Shown: positions 31,048 through 64,000, counted from the stretch's first letter. The stretch: 64,000 nt of DNA from an uncultured Gemmatimonadaceae bacterium (GCA_963790305.1 CAWBOC010000005.1:576001-640000), one strand, 5' to 3'. The notes: generated by a model from the sequence alone, not told the origin. A program made the numbers and translations.

Positions 31048-31060
31048 GGGAGCTAAAAAA

Positions 31061-31240
31061 GGCGCTAAGGGCGCTGGGGGCGCTAGGGGCGCTGAAGGAG
31101 GGATCAGGAGTCAGGAGTCAGGGATCAGGGGTGGAAAGGGGCCGCCGCGCTTCGCGCGGGCGGCCCTCATCAGATGAGCGCGGCAGCTGGGCTGCCGCGC
31201 CTTTCCATCCCTGACTCCTGATCCCTGACTCCTGACCCCT
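31061..31240. repeat. 9-mer tandem (GGCGCTRRR x4) plus a palindromic element built from TCAGGAG/CTCCTGA heptamers
   Basis: GGATCAGGAGTCAGGAGTCAGGGATCAGG ... CCCTGACTCCTGATCCCTGACTCCTGACCC with internal GC hairpins. Confidence 0.85.
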
Positions 31241-31241
31241 A

Positions 31242-32990
31242 CTAGTCTGCCAGCTTCCGTAGCTCCGCCAGCAGCGCCACCTCCTGCGGCGACGGTATCG
31301 CGGAGCGCGCCACCAGCTTCACCAGCTCACTGTCGCGCTCGTACAGATCGTTCGCGAACCACAGGTTGCCGTCGCGCACGTACGCCGTGAAATACACGAT
31401 GTAGACGGGGATTTTCTTCTTGAGCACGACCTGACGATTCGTTCCCTCCGTCGCGCGCTCGATCCGGTCCTCCGTCCATCCAGGCATTCCCGCGAGCGCG
31501 TACTTCGCCAGCTCCAGCGGCTTCTCGACACGGATGCATCCGTGGCTGAACGCGCGCACGTCGCGATCGAACAGCGAATGATCGGGCGTGTCGTGCAAAT
31601 AAATGTTCAGATCGTTGGGGAAGATGAACTTCACCGTTCCAAGCGCGTTCTTCTTGCCCGGGCGCTGGCGAATGCGCGGACCGCCCCGATCTTCCACGAT
31701 CTCGTATTCGTTGCGCTCCAGATAGCTGGGATCGGCGTTGATCTTCGGCCACAGCTCCTCCTCAGCGATCTTCTCTGGAACGTTCCAGTACGGCGCGAAC
31801 TCCAGGTAGGTCATCGAGTCGGCGAACGCCGGCGTTGCCTGGTCGGCGTAGTCCTGGCCGACGATCACCTTCATCGAGAGGACGGGCCGTCCGTTGTCGT
31901 AGGCGTCGAGGTGGAACGCCGGCACGTTGACGTAGATGTACCGGTCGCCTAACGAACGCGGCATCCAGCGATACCGCTCGAGATTGGCCATGATCTGTCC
32001 GGCGCGGTACTGCGCGGTCTGATTGAGCGACGCGAGCGTCCCCGTACCGAGGATGCTGTCGACGACAATGCCGTGCCGTCGCTGGAATGACGCGACCGCG
32101 CCTGCGAGCTCGCCTTCATAGATGGCCCGCCCGGTGGAATCGGCGGTGATGTCTCCGCGGTCGATGAAATCCTCGACGGCGAGGCGCTCGCGCAGCGCTC
32201 TCAGTCGCTCGACCTGTGCGGTATCACCTGGACGAAGTGACGGGCCCGCGGGAACCTTCGTCCACCCGCCTGCGGCAGCAATCCCGCGATACCGCTTGAG
32301 CTGCTCGCGCAGCGAGGTATACTGCTCGTCCTGCGGACGCATCAGGGCGATGGCGCGATCGAGTGGGTTCCCGCGCAGCGTTCGCGCGAGGAGGCTGTCG
32401 ACGTCGGCCGTCGACTGCCGAATGCGCCAGTCGGGCGAGACCTTTCCCGGGTCGATCTGCCCCGTGAGCAGGTCTTCGCCGAGCGCCACGTAGATCGAGG
32501 TCAGCATGACGTCCGCCTCGGCGAGGTGCTCCACGCGAGGACGACGGTTCTTGTCGATCGGCGCGAGGGCCGCTCGTAGCTCCTCCAAGGGGTACGCGTT
32601 GCCGACCAGGCCATGCTCGTGCACGGTCGCCAGCGCGTCCACCAGCTGATCGGCGCGCTCGCTGTCGGCGTCCTCCTCCAACCAGAGCGGGACGTGCTGG
32701 TAGTGCTCGTACAGCTTGACGACGCGCGCCCAGTCTCCCTCGTCGAGCCCCTTCGGCCGCTTTCCGGTGGCGACCCGGGCCTCAATCGCCTGTTGGAGCG
32801 CGGCGACCGGGATGTTCCGGACCTTGGTCAGCCCACCGGGGCTCCACGTGTCCGCAACCTCGCCCAGGTGGCTCTCGGGGGTCGCGGCGTCGTTGTTCCG
32901 GCACCCCGCGCCCAGCGTGACCGTCAGTATGACTATGCCGAGAAGCCCCGCGCGAGGACGCGCCAGGGGCCCGTGCAGCGTATCTTGCAT
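31242..32990 (-). CDS. L,D-transpeptidase (YcbB/LdtD-like) with peptidoglycan-binding domain
   Basis: FQRRHG PG-binding motif, VNVPAF, IYLHDTP, FSHGCIRV. Confidence 0.92.
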   Translation of the reverse strand: MQDTLHGPLARPRAGLLGIVILTVTLGAGCRNNDAATPESHLGEVADTWSPGGLTKVRNIPVAALQQAIEARVATGKRPKGLDEGDWARVVKLYEHYQHVPLWLEEDADSERADQLVDALATVHEHGLVGNAYPLEELRAALAPIDKNRRPRVEHLAEADVMLTSIYVALGEDLLTGQIDPGKVSPDWRIRQSTADVDSLLARTLRGNPLDRAIALMRPQDEQYTSLREQLKRYRGIAAAGGWTKVPAGPSLRPGDTAQVERLRALRERLAVEDFIDRGDITADSTGRAIYEGELAGAVASFQRRHGIVVDSILGTGTLASLNQTAQYRAGQIMANLERYRWMPRSLGDRYIYVNVPAFHLDAYDNGRPVLSMKVIVGQDYADQATPAFADSMTYLEFAPYWNVPEKIAEEELWPKINADPSYLERNEYEIVEDRGGPRIRQRPGKKNALGTVKFIFPNDLNIYLHDTPDHSLFDRDVRAFSHGCIRVEKPLELAKYALAGMPGWTEDRIERATEGTNRQVVLKKKIPVYIVYFTAYVRDGNLWFANDLYERDSELVKLVARSAIPSPQEVALLAELRKLAD

Positions 32991-33654: not shown

Positions 33655-33746
33655 CAGAAATGCGGAATGCGGAATGCGGAGTGCAGGTTGCCGCCGAGTC
33701 GGTTCGCGTTCAATGACCAATTCGCACTCCGCATTCCGCATTCTGT
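33655..33746. repeat. GAATGCG-heptamer palindromic element
   Basis: CAGAAATGCGGAATGCGGAATGCGGAGTGC ... GCACTCCGCATTCCGCATTCTG. Confidence 0.88.
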
Positions 33747-37677: not shown

Positions 37678-38736
37678 GTGACGCGGCGGCGTCTGAATCG
37701 TGGACAGCGCGTCAGGATCGACGCACCCTCCCCCCGATTCCTGCTCGTGGACATCGGCTTCGAGCTCACCAATCTCTGCAACCTGCACTGCACCCACTGC
37801 ATCCGTGGGTCGCATCAGGCGACCATCGAACGGCTCGATCTGGAGCTGATCCGCCGAGTGCTCGATGAAGCCACGGCGCTCTTCGGGTCGGTCGAGGTCG
37901 TATTCACCGGTGGGGAGCCACTGGCTTCGGAGCTCTTTCCCGCTGTGGTTCGGGAGCTGGCTCAGCGAGGTGTGTCGTACCGGTTCGTCACGAATGGATG
38001 GTTGGTGCCCCGTCATCTGCCGCTGCTTCAGTCGCACAGACCTCGCTTCGTGCGCGTAAGTCTGAGCGGGGGTACCGAGGCCACGCACGACGAGCAGCGC
38101 GGGAAGGGAAGCTTCCGGCGCGCGCTCCTGGGCGCGGCGTCCGTGCTCAGCCGGGGCATGATGGCCGAGCTGTCGCTGCTCCTCACGCGGCGAAGCCGAT
38201 CCGAGATCGGCGAGGCGATCGCCGTCGCCGCTGATCTCCGCGTTCGCGCACTGCACCTCACTCTCATGCAGCCAACGCCGGAGACCGCGGCCGCCGGGCT
38301 GGACCTTTCGCCGGAGGAGTGGCGCGAAATCGCCCGGGAAGTGAACGCGATAGCACCGCACGCGATCGTTCCGGTCGTTCTCGACTACGGCGGTCCGATG
38401 CCGGTGCCGCGCGAGCGTTGCAACACGCTCGCGTCGCGTCAGCTCTACATCGACGCGCGAGGACGGGTGCCTTTCTGCTGTCAGCTGTCCCGTTATGGCA
38501 ACGGCGGGGAGCAGATCGTCGGTGATCTCAGGACGGAGTCACTGGCCGCGATCGCTGCCCGGGCTGCGAGCGCGTACGACGCGTTTCACGGCGAAACCAC
38601 CCGTCTGCACCAGATAGGGAAGCTCGATGCGCTCGATGATTTCCCCTGCATGAGCTGCGCGCGTCGGCATGGACAGACGCGCTTCCTCACCGCGTTCCCG
38701 GGCCACTCCTGGACGCAGATCGCGCACGCGTCATGA
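37678..38736 (+). CDS. radical SAM protein with SPASM/twitch-like C-terminus
   Basis: CNLHCTHC, FTGGEPL, TNG, HD-x2-RGKGSF; C-terminal C-x12-G-x-V-x2-CC and CMSC. Confidence 0.92.
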   Translation: MTRRRLNRGQRVRIDAPSPRFLLVDIGFELTNLCNLHCTHCIRGSHQATIERLDLELIRRVLDEATALFGSVEVVFTGGEPLASELFPAVVRELAQRGVSYRFVTNGWLVPRHLPLLQSHRPRFVRVSLSGGTEATHDEQRGKGSFRRALLGAASVLSRGMMAELSLLLTRRSRSEIGEAIAVAADLRVRALHLTLMQPTPETAAAGLDLSPEEWREIAREVNAIAPHAIVPVVLDYGGPMPVPRERCNTLASRQLYIDARGRVPFCCQLSRYGNGGEQIVGDLRTESLAAIAARAASAYDAFHGETTRLHQIGKLDALDDFPCMSCARRHGQTRFLTAFPGHSWTQIAHAS

Positions 38737-39495
38737 GCGTCGCGACCCGGCCCTGGGAGTGGGAGGACGTCCGAGCAACCACCGACGAAAACGGCGTGCA
38801 TCTCGCGCACGTCGCGGAGCCGGCGGAGCTCCTGCTGCGCAAAGGGCGCCTGGTGCGAGGAGCGGGGTACGATACGGCTTCGCCAACGGCACGGCGGTCA
38901 CTTGCGCGAGTCGGGGCGATTCTTCGTCTACGCGCGCGGGGCCGCTACCTGGTGCACGCCTCGGCCGTCGTCGATCCGGCCGGGGGCGCGTGGCTCCTCG
39001 CCGGCGACAGCGGCAGCGGCAAGTCCACGCTGGCCTGGGTCCTCGTCAGGCAGGGGTGGTCATTGCTCGGCGACGATGGCGTGCTCATCGAGGATGCCGA
39101 GGGGGGTCTCGTGGCCCGCGCCTGGCGCGATCCTCTGCGTGTGAGCCTCGGCCTCGCCAAGCAGTTTCCTGAGTTGCAGGCGTTGGCGCCGCGCGTCGCC
39201 GCGCGCGATCCGCGCGCTCGCGTACCGGTGGAGCGGGAGGTCGTCCGTCAGGCACCGGTGCGGAGGATTCTCCTTCTCGAGCGTTCGCAGCGCGACCGCG
39301 TGCTTCGAGTGGGCCCCGCCGTCACGCTCGCCTCGCTCGTGCGCCAGTCTCCGTGGGTGCCTCATCGACAATGAGGATGCGCCGCGTCACCTTACCGTGC
39401 TCGCGGCCACCGCGGACTCGGTGCCGGCGTTCCACCTCGCGCACACGGAGTCGCAGCTGGAGCAGTTGCCGCTCACCCTCGCCAGGCTCGCGTAG
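38733..39495 (+). CDS. HprK-related P-loop kinase; apparent +1 frameshift near 39360
   Basis: LVHASAV, GDSGSGKST, LLGDD; removing one C after SPWV continues LIDNEDAPRHL...LARLA to TAG at 39493-39495. Confidence 0.82.
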
Positions 39496-39571
39496 GCCAG
39501 CCCGTAGTGACCCCGAAGGGTATCGATTCGTCTAACCCGGATACCGGGCGACGACGCCCGCGAGGGGCACG

Positions 39572-39817
39572 ATGGGAGACATCGAGGACCTACAATCGCA
39601 CGTTAGCGGGTCGAGCGACGTGGGCGCGACACCGCGCTCGCGGCGCCCCTGGGTCGCGCCGACGCTGATGCGCCACGCCTCGCTCACGGCGCTGACGCTT
39701 CAGTATCCGGCGGGCCTCGTCGTGGATCCGAGTACCGGCGAGCTGCTCGATCCCAACAACCCCGCCGATCGCGTCAGGCTGGCCGACATCCCGGGAAGCA
39801 CGGGCTTCTTCCCGTGA
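39572..39817 (+). CDS. putative RiPP precursor peptide (81 aa) with lasso-type leader
   Basis: RRPWVAPTLMRHASLTALT fits (Y/W)xxPxL-x3-(G/A)-x5-T; GAGGGG RBS; GTGA overlap with the next gene. Confidence 0.7.
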   Translation: MGDIEDLQSHVSGSSDVGATPRSRRPWVAPTLMRHASLTALTLQYPAGLVVDPSTGELLDPNNPADRVRLADIPGSTGFFP

Positions 39818-40741: not shown

Positions 40742-40881
40742 TCGTCTGAACGGCAAAGACGTCAGATATCAGAATACAGAATTCAGAATTCAGAAACGAC
40801 TACGGGGAGCCAGACTGGCTCCCCGCAGGTTTTGTCTGACATTCTGAATTCTGTATTCTGACGTCTCTGCCGTTCAGACGA
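40742..40881. repeat. CAGAATT-heptamer palindromic element
   Basis: TCGTCTGAACGGCAAAGACGTCAG..CAGAATACAGAATTCAGAAT ... ATTCTGAATTCTGTATTCTGACGTCTCTGCCGTTCAGACGA. Confidence 0.9.
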
Positions 40882-45688: not shown

Positions 45689-45786
45689 AACGCATGACCA
45701 CAGAGGCACTGAGGCACAGAGGACGGCAATCACCAAGCCGGTGGTTGCCGTCCTCTGTGCCTCAGCGCCTCTGTGGTTATGCCGTT
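45689..45786. repeat. ACAGAGGC-family palindromic element
   Basis: GCATGACCACAGAGGCACTGAGGCACAGAGGACGGCAA ... TTGCCGTCCTCTGTGCCTCAGCGCCTCTGTGGTTATGC. Confidence 0.9.
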
Positions 45787-49623: not shown

Positions 49624-51485
49624 CAAACGATTTCGCCTTCAAGATCGGCACGGTCAACGGCACCGGGTCAGCGAGCGCGAACGGGCTGATCATGCAGGCG
49701 ATCTTCCGGATGGGGATTCCCGTCTCGGGGAAAAACGTCTTTCCGTCGAACATTCAGGGGCTGCCGACCTGGTACGAGATCCGGGTCAACCGCGAGGGCT
49801 ACACGGCTCGCGCCCCGCATTTCGATCTCGTCGTCGCACTCAACCCTTCGACGTACCAGCGAGACGTCGCGGAGGTTCGGCAGGGCGGCTTTCTCCTGTA
49901 TGACTCGTCGTGGCCACTCGACCCAACGCTGAGGCGCGAGGACCTGTCACTGTTAGGCATCCCCTTCGGGCGGATGTGCGGCGAGGCGTTCCAGGGTGAT
50001 CGCGAGCGGCAGCTGATGCGCAACATCGCCTACGCCGGGGCGCTGGTCGCGTTCCTCAACATCGACATGGGCGTCGTCGAGGGGATGATCCGCGAGCAGT
50101 TCGGCCGAAAGCCGGCGTTGCTCGAGTCCAACTTCAAGGCGCTGCGGCTCGGGTACGACTTCGCGAAGGCGAACTTTTCCTGTCCGCTGCCCTTCTACCT
50201 CGAGCGGATGGACGCGACCGCCGACTCCATCATCATCGACGGCAACACCGCGGCGGCGCTCGGCTGCCTTTATGCGGGCGCGACCGTCGGCGCATGGTAT
50301 CCGATTACGCCGGCCACATCGCTGATGGAGGCATTCAAGGGATTGTGCGAGCGCTACCGCGTCGACCGAGCCACTGGACGCAAGCGCTTCTGCATTCTGC
50401 AAGCCGAGGACGAGCTCGCCGCAGCCGGGATGGTCGTCGGAGCAGGGTGGGCCGGTGCGCGTGCGTTCACGCCCACCGCGGGGCCGGGAATTTCGCTGAT
50501 GCAGGAGTTCATCGGGCTGGCGTACTACACGGAAATCCCCGCGGTTTTCTTCGACGTCCAGCGCGTCGGTCCGTCAACGGGTATGCCGACCCGGACCCAG
50601 CAGGGAGATCTGCTCTCGCTCGCGTACGCGTCGCATGGGGATACCAAGCATATCGTGCTCTTCCCCGCGCATCCGGAGGAGTGCTTCACCTTCGCGGTCC
50701 AGGCCTTCGACCTCGCGGAACGCTTTCAGACGCCGGTCTTCGTCGCGTCGGATCTCGACATCGGGATGAACGACTGGATGTGTCGACGCCTGACGTGGGA
50801 CGATGGCTATCGCCCCGATCGCGGAAAGGTATTGGGCGCCGAGGAACTCGAGCGGATTGGGAAATTCTCGCGCTACCTGGGGCAGAACGGAGACGCGGTT
50901 GCCGCGCGCACGCTTCCCGGGGTCGACCCGCGTGGTGCGTACTTCACGCGGGGATCCGGGCACGACATCCATGCCGGCTACACCGAGGATGCGGCGGCGT
51001 ACTCCGAGGTCCTCGCGCGGCTCGCGCGCAAGCTCGAGCAGGCGGCCGACGCCGTGCCCGCGCCGGTGATCGACCGGCACAACGGCGCCGCGACCGTCGG
51101 GATCATTACGATCGGCAGTTGTGACGCCGCGGTGCGTGAGGCGGTGGACCGGCTGAGGTCGGACGGCATGGCGATCGACTACATGCGCATTCGCGGGTTC
51201 CCGTTCGGCGGCGACGTCGTGCGTTTTCTTGGGGAGCACGATCGCTTGTTCGTCGTCGAGCAGAATCGCGATGCGCAGCTGCGATCCCTACTCGCGATAG
51301 AGACGGGCAAGGCGCGCGATGAGATGACGCCGATTCTCGATTACGGTGGCGTTCCGCTGAGCGCAGAACCGATCGCGGAAAGAGTGAGAGTCGAATACGG
51401 AATGCGGAATGCGGATCGTGAACGGAAGGCTGCAGGTCTTCATTCGCATTCCGCATTCCGTATTCCGCATTCCAGTCTCCCATGA
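49620..51485 (+). CDS. korA: 2-oxoacid:acceptor oxidoreductase alpha subunit
   Basis: FPSNIQGLPTW, WYPITP, QAEDE, GPGISLM, GPSTGMPTR. Confidence 0.93.
   Translation: MTNDFAFKIGTVNGTGSASANGLIMQAIFRMGIPVSGKNVFPSNIQGLPTWYEIRVNREGYTARAPHFDLVVALNPSTYQRDVAEVRQGGFLLYDSSWPLDPTLRREDLSLLGIPFGRMCGEAFQGDRERQLMRNIAYAGALVAFLNIDMGVVEGMIREQFGRKPALLESNFKALRLGYDFAKANFSCPLPFYLERMDATADSIIIDGNTAAALGCLYAGATVGAWYPITPATSLMEAFKGLCERYRVDRATGRKRFCILQAEDELAAAGMVVGAGWAGARAFTPTAGPGISLMQEFIGLAYYTEIPAVFFDVQRVGPSTGMPTRTQQGDLLSLAYASHGDTKHIVLFPAHPEECFTFAVQAFDLAERFQTPVFVASDLDIGMNDWMCRRLTWDDGYRPDRGKVLGAEELERIGKFSRYLGQNGDAVAARTLPGVDPRGAYFTRGSGHDIHAGYTEDAAAYSEVLARLARKLEQAADAVPAPVIDRHNGAATVGIITIGSCDAAVREAVDRLRSDGMAIDYMRIRGFPFGGDVVRFLGEHDRLFVVEQNRDAQLRSLLAIETGKARDEMTPILDYGGVPLSAEPIAERVRVEYGMRNADRERKAAGLHSHSAFRIPHSSLP
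51393..51473. repeat. GAATGCG palindromic element inside the korA 3' end
   Basis: GAATACGGAATGCGGAATGCGGAT ... ATTCGCATTCCGCATTCCGTATTCCGCATTCC. Confidence 0.88.
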
Positions 51486-57117: not shown

Positions 57118-57177
57118 GGAGGCAGCCTGTGCGGTGAGCCTCCAAAATGCGTCTTCGCGCTTCGTCCCGCGAGGGCC

Positions 57178-57282
57178 AACGGCATTAACCACAGAGGCAC
57201 AGAGGGCACGGAGGAACCCCGAACTGCAGGCCCTGCAGTTCGGGGTTCCTCCGTGCCCTCTGTGCCTCTGTGGTTATGCCGT
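57178..57282. repeat. ACAGAGGC-family palindromic element
   Basis: ACGGCATTAACCACAGAGGCACAGAGGGCACGGAGGAACCCCGAACTGCAGG-C-CCTGCAGTTCGGGGTTCCTCCGTGCCCTCTGTGCCTCTGTGGTTATGCCGT. Confidence 0.92.
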
Positions 57283-57304
57283 CAAGGCCCTTGCGCGAGG
57301 AAGC

Positions 57305-58817: not shown

Positions 58818-58942
58818 AACGACAAAGAGGGCAGAATTCAGAGCGGCATTGAAGCATCCGCGTCCCCCTTTGAACCTGGATACTTCAATGCCGCTCTGCG
58901 TTCTGAATTTCTGGTATTCTGAATTCTGTCCTCTTTGCCGTT
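58818..58942. repeat. CAGAATT-heptamer palindromic element
   Basis: AACGACAAAGAGGGCAGAATTCAGA..GCGGCATTGAAG ... CTTCAATGCCGC..TCTGAATTCTGTCCTCTTTGCCGTT. Confidence 0.85.
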
Positions 58943-58986: not shown

Positions 58987-59334
58987 ATGCCAACGACCAT
59001 ACGAGAGGAAATCGCCGAGTGCGGCTGCGCCACGCACACTCGGGGACGGAAGGCCGTCGCCGTGGATCCGGACATCAAGGACCGCACGACGAAGCGGCTA
59101 CGGCGTATCGAGGGACAGGTGCGGGGATTACAGAAGATGGTGGACGAGGAGCGCTACTGCGCCGACATCCTCACGCAGATCTCGTCCGTCCACGAAGCGC
59201 TCCGCGGCGTCGCCCGCGAGCTGTTGCGAAACCACTTGAAGCACTGCGCCGCGACCGCCATCCGCGCCGGTGACGCGCAGGCGGATGCGATGTATGACGA
59301 GCTCGTCGAGCTGGTGTATAGGCACGGGCGATAA
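58987..59334 (+). CDS. csoR: CsoR/RcnR metal-sensing repressor
   Basis: RLRRIEGQVRGL, YCADILTQ, HLKHC (Cys/His/Cys ligands). Confidence 0.9.
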   Translation: MPTTIREEIAECGCATHTRGRKAVAVDPDIKDRTTKRLRRIEGQVRGLQKMVDEERYCADILTQISSVHEALRGVARELLRNHLKHCAATAIRAGDAQADAMYDELVELVYRHGR

Positions 59335-59435
59335 GGCGAATGCGGAATGCGGAATGCGGATTGATGAATTGGGTTGGGCGCCCGGCTCCCAGGCGACCGT
59401 CATGCTCAATCCGTATTCCGCATTCCGCATTCGCC
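59335..59435. repeat. GAATGCG palindromic element between convergent genes
   Basis: GGCGAATGCGGAATGCGGAATGCGGATTGA ... TCAATCCGTATTCCGCATTCCGCATTCGCC. Confidence 0.9.
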
Positions 59436-59436
59436 T

Positions 59437-59982
59437 TTAGAACGCGTACCCGATCGACAGCCTCACCGTCGGGTAGCCATAGGTCTCATCTTCGTCGTCG
59501 TCCCCTCCGATGGGAAAGAGGCGCTTCGCCCCGACGCCCGTACCAATGAAGAACTGACGGGTGCGTCCCAGCAGCCAGCTATAACCGAGGTCGAGTCCCA
59601 CCGACAGCGCGTCGAACTCGCGCTCGACGAGCGTGCCGTCTCTCCGGTCATCTTCGGCCACGCGTGAATAGCCGAAGGAGATTCCCGCCGCGAACTTCGT
59701 TGGCGCCTCCGCGGAGGGGTAGTAGCGCAGCCTCACGTCAGCGCTGGTGTAGTCGATTTCTTCATCGTCATCGTCGTCCCCGATGCTGATGTTGCCGACC
59801 CCGACCGACCAGCTCGCGGTCGAGCTGAAGGCGCGCTCGTACTCAATGTTGTACCACTGGAACAGAAAGCCGAAGGGGTTGATCGAGAGCACATTGGCCT
59901 GCACGGGCAGGTCGATTGTCTGGGCGCGAGCCGTCGTTGCGGAGAGCGCTGCGGCGAGGAGCACGAACGAAAGGCGTTTCAT
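59437..59982 (-). CDS. small outer-membrane beta-barrel (DUF3575-like)
   Basis: Signal peptide, amphipathic strands, C-terminal IGYAF. Confidence 0.75.
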   Translation of the reverse strand: MKRLSFVLLAAALSATTARAQTIDLPVQANVLSINPFGFLFQWYNIEYERAFSSTASWSVGVGNISIGDDDDDEEIDYTSADVRLRYYPSAEAPTKFAAGISFGYSRVAEDDRRDGTLVEREFDALSVGLDLGYSWLLGRTRQFFIGTGVGAKRLFPIGGDDDEDETYGYPTVRLSIGYAF

Positions 59983-60272
59983 TGTGGCCTCAGGAAGGGA
60001 AGTGGCGTAGGTAAGGATAGCGCCCCGCCGAGCAAGATCATGGCCTGTCGCATCGCCGGGCGGGGGCGGACTCGGCCAAATGGGAAGCGTTGAGTTTCTT
60101 CAACTTGCGCCTCCAGGGCGGCGGCGCAACGAGCGTGGCTTCGCCGCCATGGCACACCGCGAGGACGTGCCGCTGTCCCGCGAGTTGCACAATCGGGCGA
60201 CCGTCAGCGATTGTAAGTCGAGGCGCGTATCCCATGCGCCTCCCCCAGACCCTTACATCAGACTCATCGACC

Positions 60273-62831
60273 ATGCGTCACCTTGTCGCCTTCGCATCGT
60301 TGGCCGTCGTCGTCGCGGCCGCCGGGTGTCGTCCGTCGCCGTCGCCCACTCCTGCCCGCCGCGCCCCCGAGGGCGGCGCCGAAGCTGGGGCGACACCGGC
60401 CGACAGCGCACAGCCGTCTGGGGGCGCCGCCCGCCCTCCCGTTAGGCCCCAGCCCTATGCGCGCGTCATTACGAGCGACTTTACCACGCGGGCCGGCCTG
60501 TTCAAGGCGCACCGCCGCGGCGACCGACTGCTCTACGAGATTCCACGCGCGGAGCTCGGACGCGACTTCCTGCTGGTCACCCAGATTGCCCGCACCACCC
60601 TCGGCGTTGGCTATGGCGGGCAGGCGGTGAGCAATCGGGTGGTTCGCTGGGAGCGTCGCGACAACAAGGTTCTTCTGCGTACGGCCTCGTTCGACATCAT
60701 GGCCGACACGTCGCTGCCGATCTACCAGGCGGTGCAAGCCGCCAACTACAACCCCATCGTCGCGAGCTTCGACGTGCTCACGTACGGGCCGGACAGTGCT
60801 GCCGTCGTGGACGTGTCGCGATTGTTCACGAACCCGCCGCCGGAGCTTGGACCGGGCCAGCGCTTGCGTGGAGCCGCCGACGCGCAGCGGAGCTTCATCG
60901 AGCGAGTCGCCGCCTTCCCCGAGAACGTCGAGGTCGAGGCGACGCTGACGTACGCAGTTCCCGCACAGCAGCCGGGCCAGGGCACGCCCACACCGACGCC
61001 TGGACCGTTCGGCCAGGGGGGCGCGCAGCCCGGTGCCGCGAGCGTGCTCATGCACTGGAGTATGGTCCGTTTGCCGACGGCCCCAATGAAGCCGCGGCTG
61101 CACGACGAGCGCGTGGGATATTTCAGTATTCGCCAGCAGGACTACGGACGCGCAGACCAGCGTGCCGCGATGCGCCGCTACATCACGCGGTGGCGTCTCG
61201 AGTGCAGCGAGCGTCGCGTCGACTCGCTCTGCTATCCGGTGAAGCCGATCGTTTACTACGTCGACCCGGCGACACCGAGGCAGTGGGTGCCGTATGTGAA
61301 GCGCGGTGTGGAGGACTGGCAGCGTGCATTCGAGGCAGCGGGCTTCAAGGAGGCGATCCTCGCGAAGGAGGCGCCCTCGCCGTCGGAGGACCCGGACTGG
61401 TCGGCGGAGGACGCGCGCTATTCGGTGATTCGCTGGCTGCCGTCGACGATCGAGAACGCGTCGGGCCCGCACATCCACGACCCGCGGACGGGGGAGATCA
61501 TCGAGTCGGACATCCAGTTCTACCACAATGTCCAGCAGCTGCTGACGACCTGGTACTGGGTGCAGGTGGGCCACCTCGACCCTCGCGCGGACCGGCTGCC
61601 GCTGCCCGACACGCTGATGGGACGCCTGCTGCAGTACGTCGTGGCCCACGAAGTCGGCCACACGTTAGGCTATCCGCACAACATGAAGGCGAGCTCGCTG
61701 TATCCCGCCGACAGCGTCCGAAGCCGCAGCTTCGTCGCGCGCTGGGGACACACGCCGACGCTGATGGATTACTCGCGCTTCAACTACGTCGCGCAGCCGG
61801 AGGATTCGATTCCCCTCGGGAATCTCATTCCCGACATCGGACCATACGACAAGTTCGTCACAATGTGGGGATACAAGCCAATCCCCGGCGCGAACACGCC
61901 CGACGACGAGCGCGAGACGCTCGATCGCTGGGCGCGCATGCAGGACACGGTGCCCTGGTTCCGCTTCTCGACGTCGAACTCGGTGGGATCCGACCCAGGG
62001 GAGAACACGGAAGCGGTGGGCGATGCCGACGCCGTACGGTCGACGACGCTCGGCCTGCGCAACATCAAGCGCCTCGTGCCGAAGCTGATCCCCGCCACGC
62101 AGCGCCCGCTGGAAGGATATGCCGATCTCCAGCTGCTCTACGATCGCCTGATCAACCAGTGGGTGCTGGAGCTGGGCCACGTCGCATCGGTCGTCGGCGG
62201 TGCCGATACGCGTGAGAAGACGACCAGCCAGGACGGCGTGCGCTTCACGCCGCTTCCACGAGCGCGACAGCAGGAGGCGGTGCGGTTTCTCAACGAGAAT
62301 GCCTTCCGCACGCCCGCGTACTTCCTCGACGAGCAAATTCTGCGGCGCATCGAGGTGGAAGGCGCGCTGGACCGAATCCGTACCGCGCAAACCCGCGTGC
62401 TCTCCCGTTTACTGGACGACTCACGGATGGACCGCATGATCGAGTTCGAGGCGCTGGCCGCGAACGGGCGGGATGTGTACCCTCTCGCCGACATGCTGGT
62501 GGATGTTCGCCGGGGAATCTGGTCCGAGGTCTCGTCAGGCGCCGAGATCGACGCGGTGCGGAGGAATCTGCAGCGCGCATACCTCGAGCTCTTCGATGCG
62601 AAGCTCAACCCGCCAGCGCCGAGGATCGCCCCCACTGGCCAGGGTGGTCCGGTGGTGATCCTGCCGGGCTCCCGGCAGTCGTCCGACGCGCGCGCTCTCT
62701 TGCGTGGGGAGCTCTCGGCTCTGGACACGCAGATTGCGGGAGTGCTGCCGCGGGTCCGGGATCGGGTGACGAGGTATCATCTCATGGATGTGAGGCATGA
62801 GATTCGGCGGATTCTCGATCCAGAGCGCTAA
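60273..62831 (+). CDS. zinc-dependent metalloprotease (DUF5117/DUF4953, EcxA-like)
   Basis: DERVGYF, DPRTGEII, AHEVGHTLGYPHN, LMDY. Confidence 0.92.
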   Translation: MRHLVAFASLAVVVAAAGCRPSPSPTPARRAPEGGAEAGATPADSAQPSGGAARPPVRPQPYARVITSDFTTRAGLFKAHRRGDRLLYEIPRAELGRDFLLVTQIARTTLGVGYGGQAVSNRVVRWERRDNKVLLRTASFDIMADTSLPIYQAVQAANYNPIVASFDVLTYGPDSAAVVDVSRLFTNPPPELGPGQRLRGAADAQRSFIERVAAFPENVEVEATLTYAVPAQQPGQGTPTPTPGPFGQGGAQPGAASVLMHWSMVRLPTAPMKPRLHDERVGYFSIRQQDYGRADQRAAMRRYITRWRLECSERRVDSLCYPVKPIVYYVDPATPRQWVPYVKRGVEDWQRAFEAAGFKEAILAKEAPSPSEDPDWSAEDARYSVIRWLPSTIENASGPHIHDPRTGEIIESDIQFYHNVQQLLTTWYWVQVGHLDPRADRLPLPDTLMGRLLQYVVAHEVGHTLGYPHNMKASSLYPADSVRSRSFVARWGHTPTLMDYSRFNYVAQPEDSIPLGNLIPDIGPYDKFVTMWGYKPIPGANTPDDERETLDRWARMQDTVPWFRFSTSNSVGSDPGENTEAVGDADAVRSTTLGLRNIKRLVPKLIPATQRPLEGYADLQLLYDRLINQWVLELGHVASVVGGADTREKTTSQDGVRFTPLPRARQQEAVRFLNENAFRTPAYFLDEQILRRIEVEGALDRIRTAQTRVLSRLLDDSRMDRMIEFEALAANGRDVYPLADMLVDVRRGIWSEVSSGAEIDAVRRNLQRAYLELFDAKLNPPAPRIAPTGQGGPVVILPGSRQSSDARALLRGELSALDTQIAGVLPRVRDRVTRYHLMDVRHEIRRILDPER

Positions 62832-62838
62832 GGGCCGA

Positions 62839-62942
62839 ACTGCATCACCACAGAGGCACAGAGGGCACAGAGAATGGCCAACTGCAAAGGCCTTTGCAGT
62901 TGGCCATTCTCTGTGCCCTCTGTGCCTCTGTGGTGATGCAGT
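62839..62942. repeat. perfect 104-bp palindrome, ACAGAGGC family
   Basis: The arm 62839-62890 is the exact reverse complement of 62891-62942, with no loop. Confidence 0.95.
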
Positions 62943-63397
62943 CATAGCACGACGCGCACAATGCCGTCCCGGAGCAGTTCAGTGTTGAAGTTCATGAGAA
63001 GACCGATCCGAAGTCGCGAGAGCTTGAGGTATGTAATGACCTGAGCTGTGTGAACTGGCGCTAGCCGCTCGATCGCCTTCAGCTCGACGAGAACGCGTTT
63101 CTCGACAACGAGATCAAGCCGATAGCCGGCGTCCACATGAACGCCCTTGTAAACAAGAGGAAGCGCTATCTCGCGCTCCATGCTCAGGCCCCGATGGTGA
63201 AGCTCCCAACACAAGCACTCCCGGTACGCCGACTCGAGCAGCCCTGGCCCGAGCTGCCGATGGACCTCTATCCCCGCGCCGATGATCTGGCCCGTGATGG
63301 AATCCCTCTGTGCGCTCTGTGCCTCTGTGGTTATGCTCTTGGCTCGTGCGTAGAGGACCCCAAGGGTGCTCGCTGGATATCGCGCCACCGTCATCAA
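62942..63397 (-). CDS. GxxExxY protein (PD-(D/E)XK nuclease-like); start uncertain
   Basis: LGPGLLESAY, YRLDLVVE, VELK, AQVITYLK, GLLMNF. Confidence 0.93.
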   Translation of the reverse strand: MMTVARYPASTLGVLYARAKSITTEAQSAQRDSITGQIIGAGIEVHRQLGPGLLESAYRECLCWELHHRGLSMEREIALPLVYKGVHVDAGYRLDLVVEKRVLVELKAIERLAPVHTAQVITYLKLSRLRIGLLMNFNTELLRDGIVRVVL

Positions 63398-63424
63398 TCC
63401 AACTCACGAGGAATCCACGAGCCT

Positions 63425-64000
63425 ATGAATCGAATCGCGTCGATCCTCATTCTCCTCGTCTCCCTCGCGACCCTCTCCCACGCCCAGGCCACCCGTGCCC
63501 GCGACCTTGGCCTCGACTCCCTCATCGGTGGCGTACCGGGGCCACTCGATGCCATCACTGACGTTGCCGGGGTCGAGGTCGGGCACACCACGCTCATCTC
63601 GGGGAATGGGAAGCTCGTCGTGGGTCGCGGACCGGTGCGCACGGGGGTCACGGTCGTGCATCCACGCGGGCGCGCGAGCAGTGATCCAGTGTTCGGCGCC
63701 TGGTTCACGCTCAACGGGAACGGCGAGATGACGGGCACCACCTGGCTCGAGGAGAGTGGGGTTCTCGAAGGACCCATCGCCATCACCAACACGCACAGCG
63801 TCGGCGTCGTGCGCGACGCGATTCTTCAGTGGCAGGTGAGCCGCCCGGGACTACAGCCTTGGGGCCTGCCGGTGGTGGCCGAGACCTACGATGGTGGGCT
63901 CAATGACATCAACGGGTTTCACGTGAAGCCGGAGCACGTTCTGAGCGCGCTCGACGGGGCGCGCGGTGGTGCGGTGACCGAGGGAAATGTCGGTGGCGGC
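63425..64000 (+). CDS. DmpA/P1 family (S58) aminopeptidase, partial
   Basis: Manual translation MNRIASIL...RARDLG...AITDVAGVEVGH..VRTGVT..NGNGEMTG..TNTHSVG..VAETYDG. Confidence 0.9.
   Translation, partial: MNRIASILILLVSLATLSHAQATRARDLGLDSLIGGVPGPLDAITDVAGVEVGHTTLISGNGKLVVGRGPVRTGVTVVHPRGRASSDPVFGAWFTLNGNGEMTGTTWLEESGVLEGPIAITNTHSVGVVRDAILQWQVSRPGLQPWGLPVVAETYDGGLNDINGFHVKPEHVLSALDGARGGAVTEGNVGGG

Follow-up and report, generated by a model that had tools for sequence, protein, structure and literature searches.

The window analysed here is a 64,000-nucleotide (nt) stretch of DNA from an uncultured Gemmatimonadaceae bacterium (GCA_963790305.1 CAWBOC010000005.1:576001-640000). Near its 3' end, a gene for a small nuclease of the GxxExxY (PDDEXK_3) family is enclosed by copies of a repeat arm, and the same arms form two hairpins without the gene elsewhere in the window. 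On the best reading, a widespread element with inverted repeats as its boundaries is present in the window three times, once with the gene and twice without it. Whether this element is a selfish unit, built like the intervening sequence (IVS) of 23S rRNA and equipped with a nuclease and many gene-free hairpins, is in our judgement an even call. The evidence consists of the anatomy of the locus, an association of gene and repeat, their broad distribution, and, in Sphingomonas, a single site with a filled and an empty state. GxxExxY/PDDEXK_3 is one of the larger protein families of unknown function, and for intergenic palindromes with arms of tandem 7-8-nt units, reports going back decades name neither an enzyme nor a mechanism. 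If gene and palindromes belong together, both can be tested with one purified protein and one hairpin substrate. In a passage of one paper, GxxExxY figures only as the label of a neighbouring gene (PMC8934634), and a passage of another gives the function of the PDDEXK_3 family as 'Unknown' (PMC3424549). No description of the GxxExxY gene-repeat pairing and no match to the arm string were found in the literature searched.

A perfect 104-bp palindrome was found at 62839-62942 (no strand). Its arms, 62839-62890 and 62891-62942, are 52 nt each and 100% complementary, with 0 nt between them. From the outside in, each arm is composed of ACTGCATCA, three CACAGAGG-type octamers, and an 18-nt inner part; the DNA fold of 62825-62960 has an energy of -73.9 kcal/mol. 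The palindrome starts 8 nt past the stop of a convergent DUF4953 metalloprotease gene (60090-62831) and includes the last base of the stop codon (62942-62944) of the nuclease. The longest open reading frame (ORF) of the nuclease occupies 62942-63397 on the minus strand and encodes 151 aa from TTG, with the domain at residues 33-149 (about 62951-63301). Within this ORF, on the same strand, a 5' copy of the repeat arm is located at 63305-63350 (octamers 63330-63305, outer arm 63350-63331). The arm string at 63331-63306 is translated as TTEAQSAQR (ORF residues 23-31). Over 31 nt (score 25), the 5' copy can pair with the palindrome's far arm. As read from the sequence and the alignment, this complementarity extends imperfectly into the outer flanks; the outer imperfect part of the left arm (62819-62838, no strand) overlaps the metalloprotease gene at its end and has partial complementarity to 63337-63350. 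The alignment gave GCGCnnGGGCCnAACnGCATnACC as the consensus of the shared arm, about 20 nt further outward than originally predicted, and this outer-arm consensus is common to all six window hairpin arms and the 5' copy of the gene. With at most 2 mismatches, the 15-mer CACAGAGGCACAGAG was matched 9 times in the window, against a mean of 0.20 in 100 shuffles, none of which (0/100) reached 9. A similarity of the last 20 nt of the gene to the outer-arm consensus was rejected as too weak in a GC-rich genome.

The original prediction, which was made from the sequence of the window, had named the palindrome, the 5' arm copy, the nuclease ORF, and two gene-free hairpins, and all of these coordinates hold by palindrome computation, ORF analysis, and profile matches. 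It had described the layout as direct repeat, nuclease, direct repeat, and inverted repeat. The parts are present; they are better read as a terminal inverted-repeat pair with an extra inverted duplication, in which the 5' copy and the far palindrome arm are the usual terminal pair and the near arm and the centre are the addition. In gene orientation, the order is arm, gene, extra arm with centre, and inverted arm. On this reading, it is the added inverted duplication of inner arm and centre that makes the 3' end a perfect palindrome. From GCAT to ATGC, with the extra inner arm included, the unit is 498 nt long. It is placed between the metalloprotease gene and an S58 peptidase gene, antisense to both; the latter lies on the strand opposite to the nuclease and starts about 30 nt from the top of the nuclease ORF. 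The G+C content of the window is 65.9%, and its genes (histidine biosynthesis, peptidases, oxidoreductases) resemble those of an ordinary chromosome.

The possible upstream starts of the nuclease ORF are TTG 63397, ATG 63394, and GTG 63388. No ATG, GTG, or TTG occurs between these starts and the conserved core, nor between the codon of Ile22 and the core. Ile22 is encoded by ATA (63332-63334, minus strand) at the position where some relatives have their Met start (P0044 begins MTTE), and the hairpin arm at 45692 carries ATG (GCATGACC) where the 5' copy of the gene carries ATA (GCATAACC). A promoter scan of 62700-63700 returned 0 promoter-like sites, and no terminator-like site was found at the palindrome.

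Traces of the arm were also found in homologous proteins. In many of the closest homologues (about 65-87% identical), (LSQRA)KSITTEAQRAQR or a close variant stands directly before the core; both named organisms among them belong to Gemmatimonadaceae. Upstream of this string, no relationship is seen among the called N-termini, which also differ in length; hence, the conserved boundary is the repeat arm and not a start codon. More distant members start with MNHRDTEAQR, MTTETQK, and similar strings, which, as judged by back-translation from the protein, the same octamer could encode. For the leader test, 5-residue peptides encodable by three C[AG]C[AG]GAGN units were counted, with antisense peptides and the protein cores as controls. 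Arm-encodable 5-mers were present in 31/113 leaders of close homologues and 14/130 leaders of diverse representatives (antisense control, 1 and 2), and in 0/120 and 1/150 of the respective cores. In C-terminal tails, antisense peptides were present in 6/75, versus 2 for the sense control. If this reading is true, odd N- and C-terminal extensions of GxxExxY proteins would be flagged in annotation as translated repeat arms.

The pairing of gene and repeat was evaluated at ten gene-centred loci, namely the window, six plasmid records obtained by tblastn of the core (L124-L129), two loci from the genome scan described below (L013 and L073), and L007. As controls, 400 ORFs of 90-200 aa from the same loci were used, and the threshold was a bracketing inverted repeat with a score of at least 13. 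Such a repeat brackets the gene at seven of the ten loci (L124, L013, the window, L126, L125, L073, and L127) and 4/400 of the controls. The association suspected in the original prediction is supported, and the partnership of gene and repeat is real and general. Chance adjacency of the two was rejected by the shuffle test together with the control-ORF comparison. The bracketing repeats are about 25-31 bp and are built of C(A/G)C(A/G)GAGG-type octamers, and their hosts belong to Gemmatimonadota, Bacteroidota, Alphaproteobacteria, and Planctomycetota and include an archaeon.

The bracketed loci outside the window are as follows. In Bacteroides finegoldii (L126), inverted repeats at 1431-1460 and 1873-1902, the left arm beginning with TTCACCACAGAGG, enclose the gene between radA and the gene of an FAD-dependent protein. 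In Bernardetia (L125), 28-nt inverted repeats of CACAGAG units lie between the adenine deaminase and guanylyltransferase genes. Sphingomonas parapaucimobilis (L127) has 25-nt inverted repeats of CGCGAAGG-type units with the ends TTCAC...GTGAA, between fabD and fabG. The gene of Gemmatirosa kalamazoonensis (L124, an unannotated record) has complete CGCAGAGG hairpins on both sides. The genome scan contributed a gene exactly between inverted arms in Phycisphaerales (L013), a frameshifted gene between arms in a Thermoplasmatales archaeon (L073), and, in Sorangium (L059), a gene fragment beside an arm. From repeat to repeat, the units measure 437 bp (L127), 451 bp (L125), 472 bp (L126), and about 478 bp (L013). 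The gene is co-oriented with both neighbours at 6/6 judgeable loci (L125-L129 and L013), to which the window copy is the exception. Two of these six are built differently: Treponema (L128) has an 11-bp inverted repeat only, and in Prevotella (L129) an ACAAAT-type leader stands as a direct repeat before the gene and before the next ORF, the gene lying on the strand of both neighbours in either case. In the latter, a Prevotella nigrescens plasmid record, the stretch 1330-1960 shows the GxxExxY gene and the next small ORF, both preceded by the same leader, which is about 70 nt long and has ACAAAT-type tandem units at its end; the repeats are direct, not inverted, and the arrangement is cassette-like.

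A filled and an empty site were found at fabD|fabG. In S. parapaucimobilis, the spacer between the two genes holds the 437-bp repeat-gene-repeat unit. When fabD, the unit, and fabG were used together as a query, seven other alphaproteobacterial records aligned in two pieces and spanned about 460 bp less; these shorter-span records (H10-H17) are from S. paeninsulae, Methylobacterium, Rhizobium, Shinella, and Sinorhizobium (four records). The spacer of S. paeninsulae (L130, the same record as H10), the one that was read, is about 30 nt long, has no hairpin, and runs straight into the ribosome-binding region of fabG. The unit arrived whole at this site. A filled and an empty orthologous site in a relative, which the original prediction had regarded as informative, is therefore available in Sphingomonas. 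For the window locus, no orthologue was found in the plasmid collection, and the window hairpin had no blastn match there.

The two gene-free hairpins of the window have the same arms as the nuclease locus. The hairpin at 57186-57276 (no strand) has 45-nt arms that are 100% complementary with 1 nt between them (-74.7 kcal/mol); its imperfect outer stem extends to about 57171-57296, between two co-oriented minus-strand genes. The hairpin at 45692-45782 (no strand) has 43-nt arms, 93% complementary, around a 5-nt loop and lies between convergent genes. The window has three same-arm hairpins, one of them beside its single GxxExxY gene, and their centres differ. The hairpins at 57186-57276 and 62839-62942 are palindromic through their centres (1 and 0 unpaired bases, respectively), and AACTGCA is common to both centres. 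Such palindromic centres point to DNA-level copying, for example by template switching or fold-back synthesis, because a stem-loop selected only for structure would not need a palindromic centre.

A 20-base arm pattern was scanned against contigs representing one genome per species, and flanks were obtained for 80 loci. The exact 20-base motif was found, mostly in hairpins that lack the gene, in at least 124 stretches from many phyla and archaea, against about one expected in random sequence by our own arithmetic. The bacterial hosts include Planctomycetota, Myxococcota (complete Sorangium genomes), Chloroflexota, Acidobacteriota, Verrucomicrobiota, Proteobacteria, Cyanobacteria, Nitrospirota, and Gemmatimonadales; the archaeal hosts include Methanothrix and Thermoplasmatales. 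Among the 136 distinct motif sites listed, an inverted partner was present within 300 nt at 78 and at 301-1500 nt at 5. The base at -1 is A at 121/136 listed sites, and TTCA is the commonest preceding 4-mer (45/136). Each of two Gemmatirosa plasmids, about 1 Mb in size, has the CGCAGAGG hairpin at no fewer than 39 places (at least 78 in the two together, versus 2 GxxExxY places). In seven Isosphaeraceae copies the termini are invariant and the interiors of about 130 nt differ, and in L035 and L069 (78% identical over 5.2 kb) the element occupies the same orthologous site. An autonomous cassette with non-autonomous derivatives had been suggested in the original prediction. The part that concerns numbers stands, since gene-free copies far outnumber gene-bearing ones; the part that concerns descent is not supported, the hairpin centres not being visibly derived from the gene.

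Of the 141 ORFs beside motif sites, the 61 of about 350 aa or less were scanned against Pfam. No transposase was found among them or among the 54 ORFs of the window, and these flanking ORFs are assorted housekeeping genes. Among 27 ORFs located downstream of motif sites without a partner and 28 control ORFs, no gene recurred, and the longer arm intervals (L026 and L036, about 1.1 kb) contained no convincing cargo. Three further observations were made on these sites. In two metagenome-assembled genomes (MAGs) of Acidobacteriota (L005 and L018), an extra lineage-specific outer stem, CACGTACGTAG...CTTCGTACGTGA, was seen, and GTAG immediately precedes the motif. Longer repeats of 200-300 nt, whose copies are 75-81% identical, contain the motif in one Syntrophobacterales MAG and Methanothrix (L020/L055 and L052/L063/L104). 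One motif site (L070) is on a contig of a MAG labelled Klebsiella pneumoniae, a host unlike the others, and this contig may be mis-binned.

The window ORF matched PF13366 PDDEXK_3 with an E-value of 4.4e-42 (143.6 bits, cut-off 22) and TIGR04256 GxxExxY with an E-value of 6e-44 (149.1 bits, cut-off 35). The G-x-x-E-x-x-Y motif of the protein is GLLESAY. In a 60-sequence alignment, E25, Y28, D65, E75, and K77 (numbering of the 121-aa core) are invariant, and all are present in the window protein; the predicted D...E-x-K catalytic residues are intact. The AlphaFold2 model had a mean predicted local distance difference test (pLDDT) score of 94.6 and a predicted template modelling (pTM) score of 0.88. 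A Foldseek comparison with the PDB gave generic PD-(D/E)XK matches, namely Cas4, lambda exonuclease, and the archaeal Holliday-junction resolvase Hjc; these were weak (best E-value 3e-3, template modelling (TM) score at most 0.52). A sequence search of solved structures gave no match at E-values up to 1. The nuclease had no match in PADLOC or PHROGs, and tblastn against phage records gave none either; hence, nothing ties it to known defence systems or phages. The family comprises 35,510 clusters (50% identity) at an E-value of 1e-3 or better and 16,483 at 1e-10 or better. Of the 150 best family representatives (P0121-P0270), 28 (P0121-P0135 and 13 more) have two GxxExxY domains in tandem, in chains of about 260-295 aa with unrelated linkers of 16-40 residues. 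These two-domain fusions would fit an enzyme that works as a dimer.

The mechanism that we favour is as follows. The canonical unit, as seen in other genomes, is about 440-480 bp long, with three C(A/G)C(A/G)GAGG-type octamers at each end, the ends usually reading TTCA...TGAA, around one small cargo gene for a minimal PD-(D/E)XK nuclease (GxxExxY). It would insert whole into short intergenic spacers, usually on the strand of the neighbours; because of this co-orientation, read-through transcription is probable. By pairing, the ends of the unit could form a long stem whose loop holds the ORF, the form known from 23S rRNA IVSs that are excised by RNase III, and the stem may likewise be processed by RNase III. 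The gene-free hairpins, 25-40 times commoner, would be non-autonomous relatives served by a nuclease encoded at another place in the genome. A plausible but tentative step, which we rather doubt than accept, is that the nuclease recognises the arms and sets movement going. The window copy, presumed here to be expressed, departs from the canonical unit in three respects: the 5' arm continues in frame into the ORF and has ATA at the Met position, the 3' arm is duplicated in inverted form into the 104-bp palindrome, and the unit is antisense to both neighbours.

Several observations weigh against a selfish unit. The window copy may be silent, because it has no canonical start near the core and no promoter-like site and is antisense to both neighbours. 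Three of the ten gene loci are without octamer inverted repeats (an 11-bp repeat only in L128, direct repeats in L129, and a weak signal in L007). No partner arm was found within 1500 nt at 53/136 listed motif sites, 4 of which had less than 300 nt of sequence, and a gene or gene remnant accompanied the arm at only 3/79 flanked motif loci. The hairpin centres have no clear homology to the gene in the three window hairpins or the seven Isosphaeraceae copies. At the L127 junction no target-site duplication was visible, with an empty comparator that is only about 72% identical. The modelled fold matches only generic enzymes, which makes it uninformative on the substrate.

Some of these observations would be expected if the hairpins were host elements maintained by selection, with a role as terminators, as stabilisers of mRNA, as sites for RNase III, or as targets of binding proteins, and had spread through ordinary processes, for example slippage, recombination, and template switching at quasi-palindromes. 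In that case, the GxxExxY gene would be a passenger that lands in or beside hairpins or uses them as RNA ends of its own, and the nuclease would serve another purpose. Invariant arms with variable interiors, as in the Isosphaeraceae copies, point to long-term selection on the arms and not to recent copying, and the retention of a hairpin at one orthologous site between genomes only 78% identical is of the same kind. The window hairpins occur in every intergenic setting, and most motif sites have no gene nearby. Published passages also describe tandem-heptamer inverted pairs at conserved sites with no assigned enzyme (PMC4692102; PMC2670836). However, host elements leave unexplained why an exact 20-mer is common to archaea and to phyla of very different base composition, and why GxxExxY recurs inside the arms when no family recurs among the 61 small flanking ORFs. 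In Sphingomonas, moreover, the repeats arrived together with the gene, and the spacer is hairpin-free in the one relative read. We consider host elements unlikely, yet the main rival to the selfish unit.

The original prediction had also raised a nuclease that homes into existing palindromes. Such an enzyme would cut gene-free hairpins or cruciforms, and repair through arm homology would copy the gene in from a gene-bearing copy. This would suit the arms common to gene-bearing and gene-free copies, the complete hairpins on either side of the Gemmatirosa gene (L124), and the perfect palindrome that abuts the stop codon in the window; the 28/150 tandem fusions would fit a dimer on symmetric DNA. 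The single filled versus empty comparison is nevertheless an insertion into a hairpin-free spacer, and because the empty fabD|fabG spacer of the one relative read has no hairpin, insertion of the whole unit is favoured over homing. The arms would give only about 25-50 bp of homology, and an empty and filled pair at one hairpin site was not found. Homing is accordingly quite improbable in our view. Still further from the data, and to our mind barely credible, is the proposal that the hairpins are doublets of repetitive extragenic palindromic (REP) sequences (REPINs) moved by a Y1 transposase encoded elsewhere, such as a REP-associated tyrosine transposase (RAYT), with the nuclease gene as a mere neighbour. 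The hairpins are indeed numerous, intergenic, and doublets of a short repeat, and GTAG, the usual head of REP sequences, directly precedes the motif in two Acidobacteriota hairpins (2/136 listed sites). The window arms, however, start with GCATnACC and not GTAG. REPs are specific to a species, and the arm motif is common to many phyla. No Y1_Tnp was detected among the 54 window ORFs or the 61/141 flanking ORFs scanned, and the REPIN/RAYT-like system suggested by the original prediction was abandoned. No integrase family was found among the 54 window ORFs, and the window arms are presumably unlike integron attC core sites.

A wider form of the selfish-unit reading is that GxxExxY nucleases are the missing mobility enzyme of hairpin-bounded selfish cassettes across prokaryotes, acting on the structure of their own repeats. 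We think this unlikely and put it forward as speculation. If true, such cassettes and their derivatives would explain the intergenic tandem-7-8-nt palindromes and the patchy distribution of a huge protein family, and possibly also the origin of ORF-bearing rRNA IVSs. The selfish unit itself, if true, would be a concrete candidate for how rRNA-IVS-like elements move and would explain small 'extra' genes wedged in conserved operons, such as fabD-fabG.

Six further long intergenic hairpins with arms of tandem 7-nt units were found in the window, at 31084-31243, 33659-33743, 40742-40881, 51386-51479, 58818-58942, and 59333-59437. Their arm units are AGGAGTC/AGGGATC, GGAATGC (three copies), and CAGAATW (two copies), and within the window they are accompanied by no cargo gene. 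Together with the three CACAGAGG hairpins they make nine in 33 kb, of which 4 lie in convergent, 3 in co-oriented, and 2 in divergent spacers. At 31060-31095, four tandem GGGGCGCT-like octamers directly precede the AGGAGTC hairpin, so that two repeat types are stacked at one site. Elsewhere in the window (37678-39817), an HPr-kinase-C-like ORF and a small ORF come after a radical SAM gene; the three could be a peptide-maturation cluster.

Among known systems, REP/RAYT appears closest in logic, in that one small enzyme gene is flanked by a short palindromic repeat that also fills intergenic regions as doublet hairpins. The two differ in the enzyme (PD-(D/E)XK here, HUH/Y1 there), in that no Y1 gene was found among the ORFs scanned, and in an arm that is common to phyla. 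With MITEs (miniature transposable elements with inverted repeats) and their autonomous transposons, the element shares terminal inverted repeats, many short gene-free copies, and a filled versus empty site in related genomes. Unlike them, it has no known transposase; no target-site duplication was seen at the L127 junction, where the comparator is only about 72% identical; and its short copies have interiors that bear no relation to the gene and little to one another, and are thus not internal deletions. Free-standing homing endonuclease genes are likewise small nuclease genes in tight spacers of conserved genes (compare fabD|fabG) with a patchy distribution; the GxxExxY cassette differs in carrying inverted repeats of its own and in having no known cognate cleavage site. 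The short tandemly repeated repetitive (STRR) hairpins of cyanobacteria and the GGGAATC inverted pairs of Xanthomonas are described in published passages as intergenic, of unknown function, and with no assigned enzyme (PMC2670836; PMC4692102). Their arms, too, are tandem 7-8-nt units arranged as intergenic inverted pairs. No linked gene is mentioned in those passages, whereas the present element has an octamer unit, a defined terminus, and a recurrent cargo gene.

In architecture, the closest known system appears to be the ORF-bearing 23S rRNA IVS. That of Coxiella burnetii is described as 428-444 nt long, with a terminal stem of 28 bp and a loop that holds an ORF; it is excised by RNase III, and its origin is debated (PMC4990558). 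The element resembles such IVSs (Coxiella S23p, Leptospira) in its length of about 430-480 nt, its terminal inverted repeats of about 25-31 bp, and a loop with a single small ORF; both occur here and there among taxa, and both have come under suspicion of being selfish or mobile. Four units (L125, L126, L127, and L013) have the size and stem of an IVS, with 437-478 nt and arms of 25-30 nt. The differences are also clear. The GxxExxY unit lies between protein genes and not in rRNA, and Rfam returned no family, rRNA included, over the whole window. Its ORF encodes a PD-(D/E)XK nuclease instead of the four-helix-bundle S23p, its arms are tandem octamers, and gene-free copies abound. GxxExxY genes are reported in a database comment to be present in rRNA IVSs as well.

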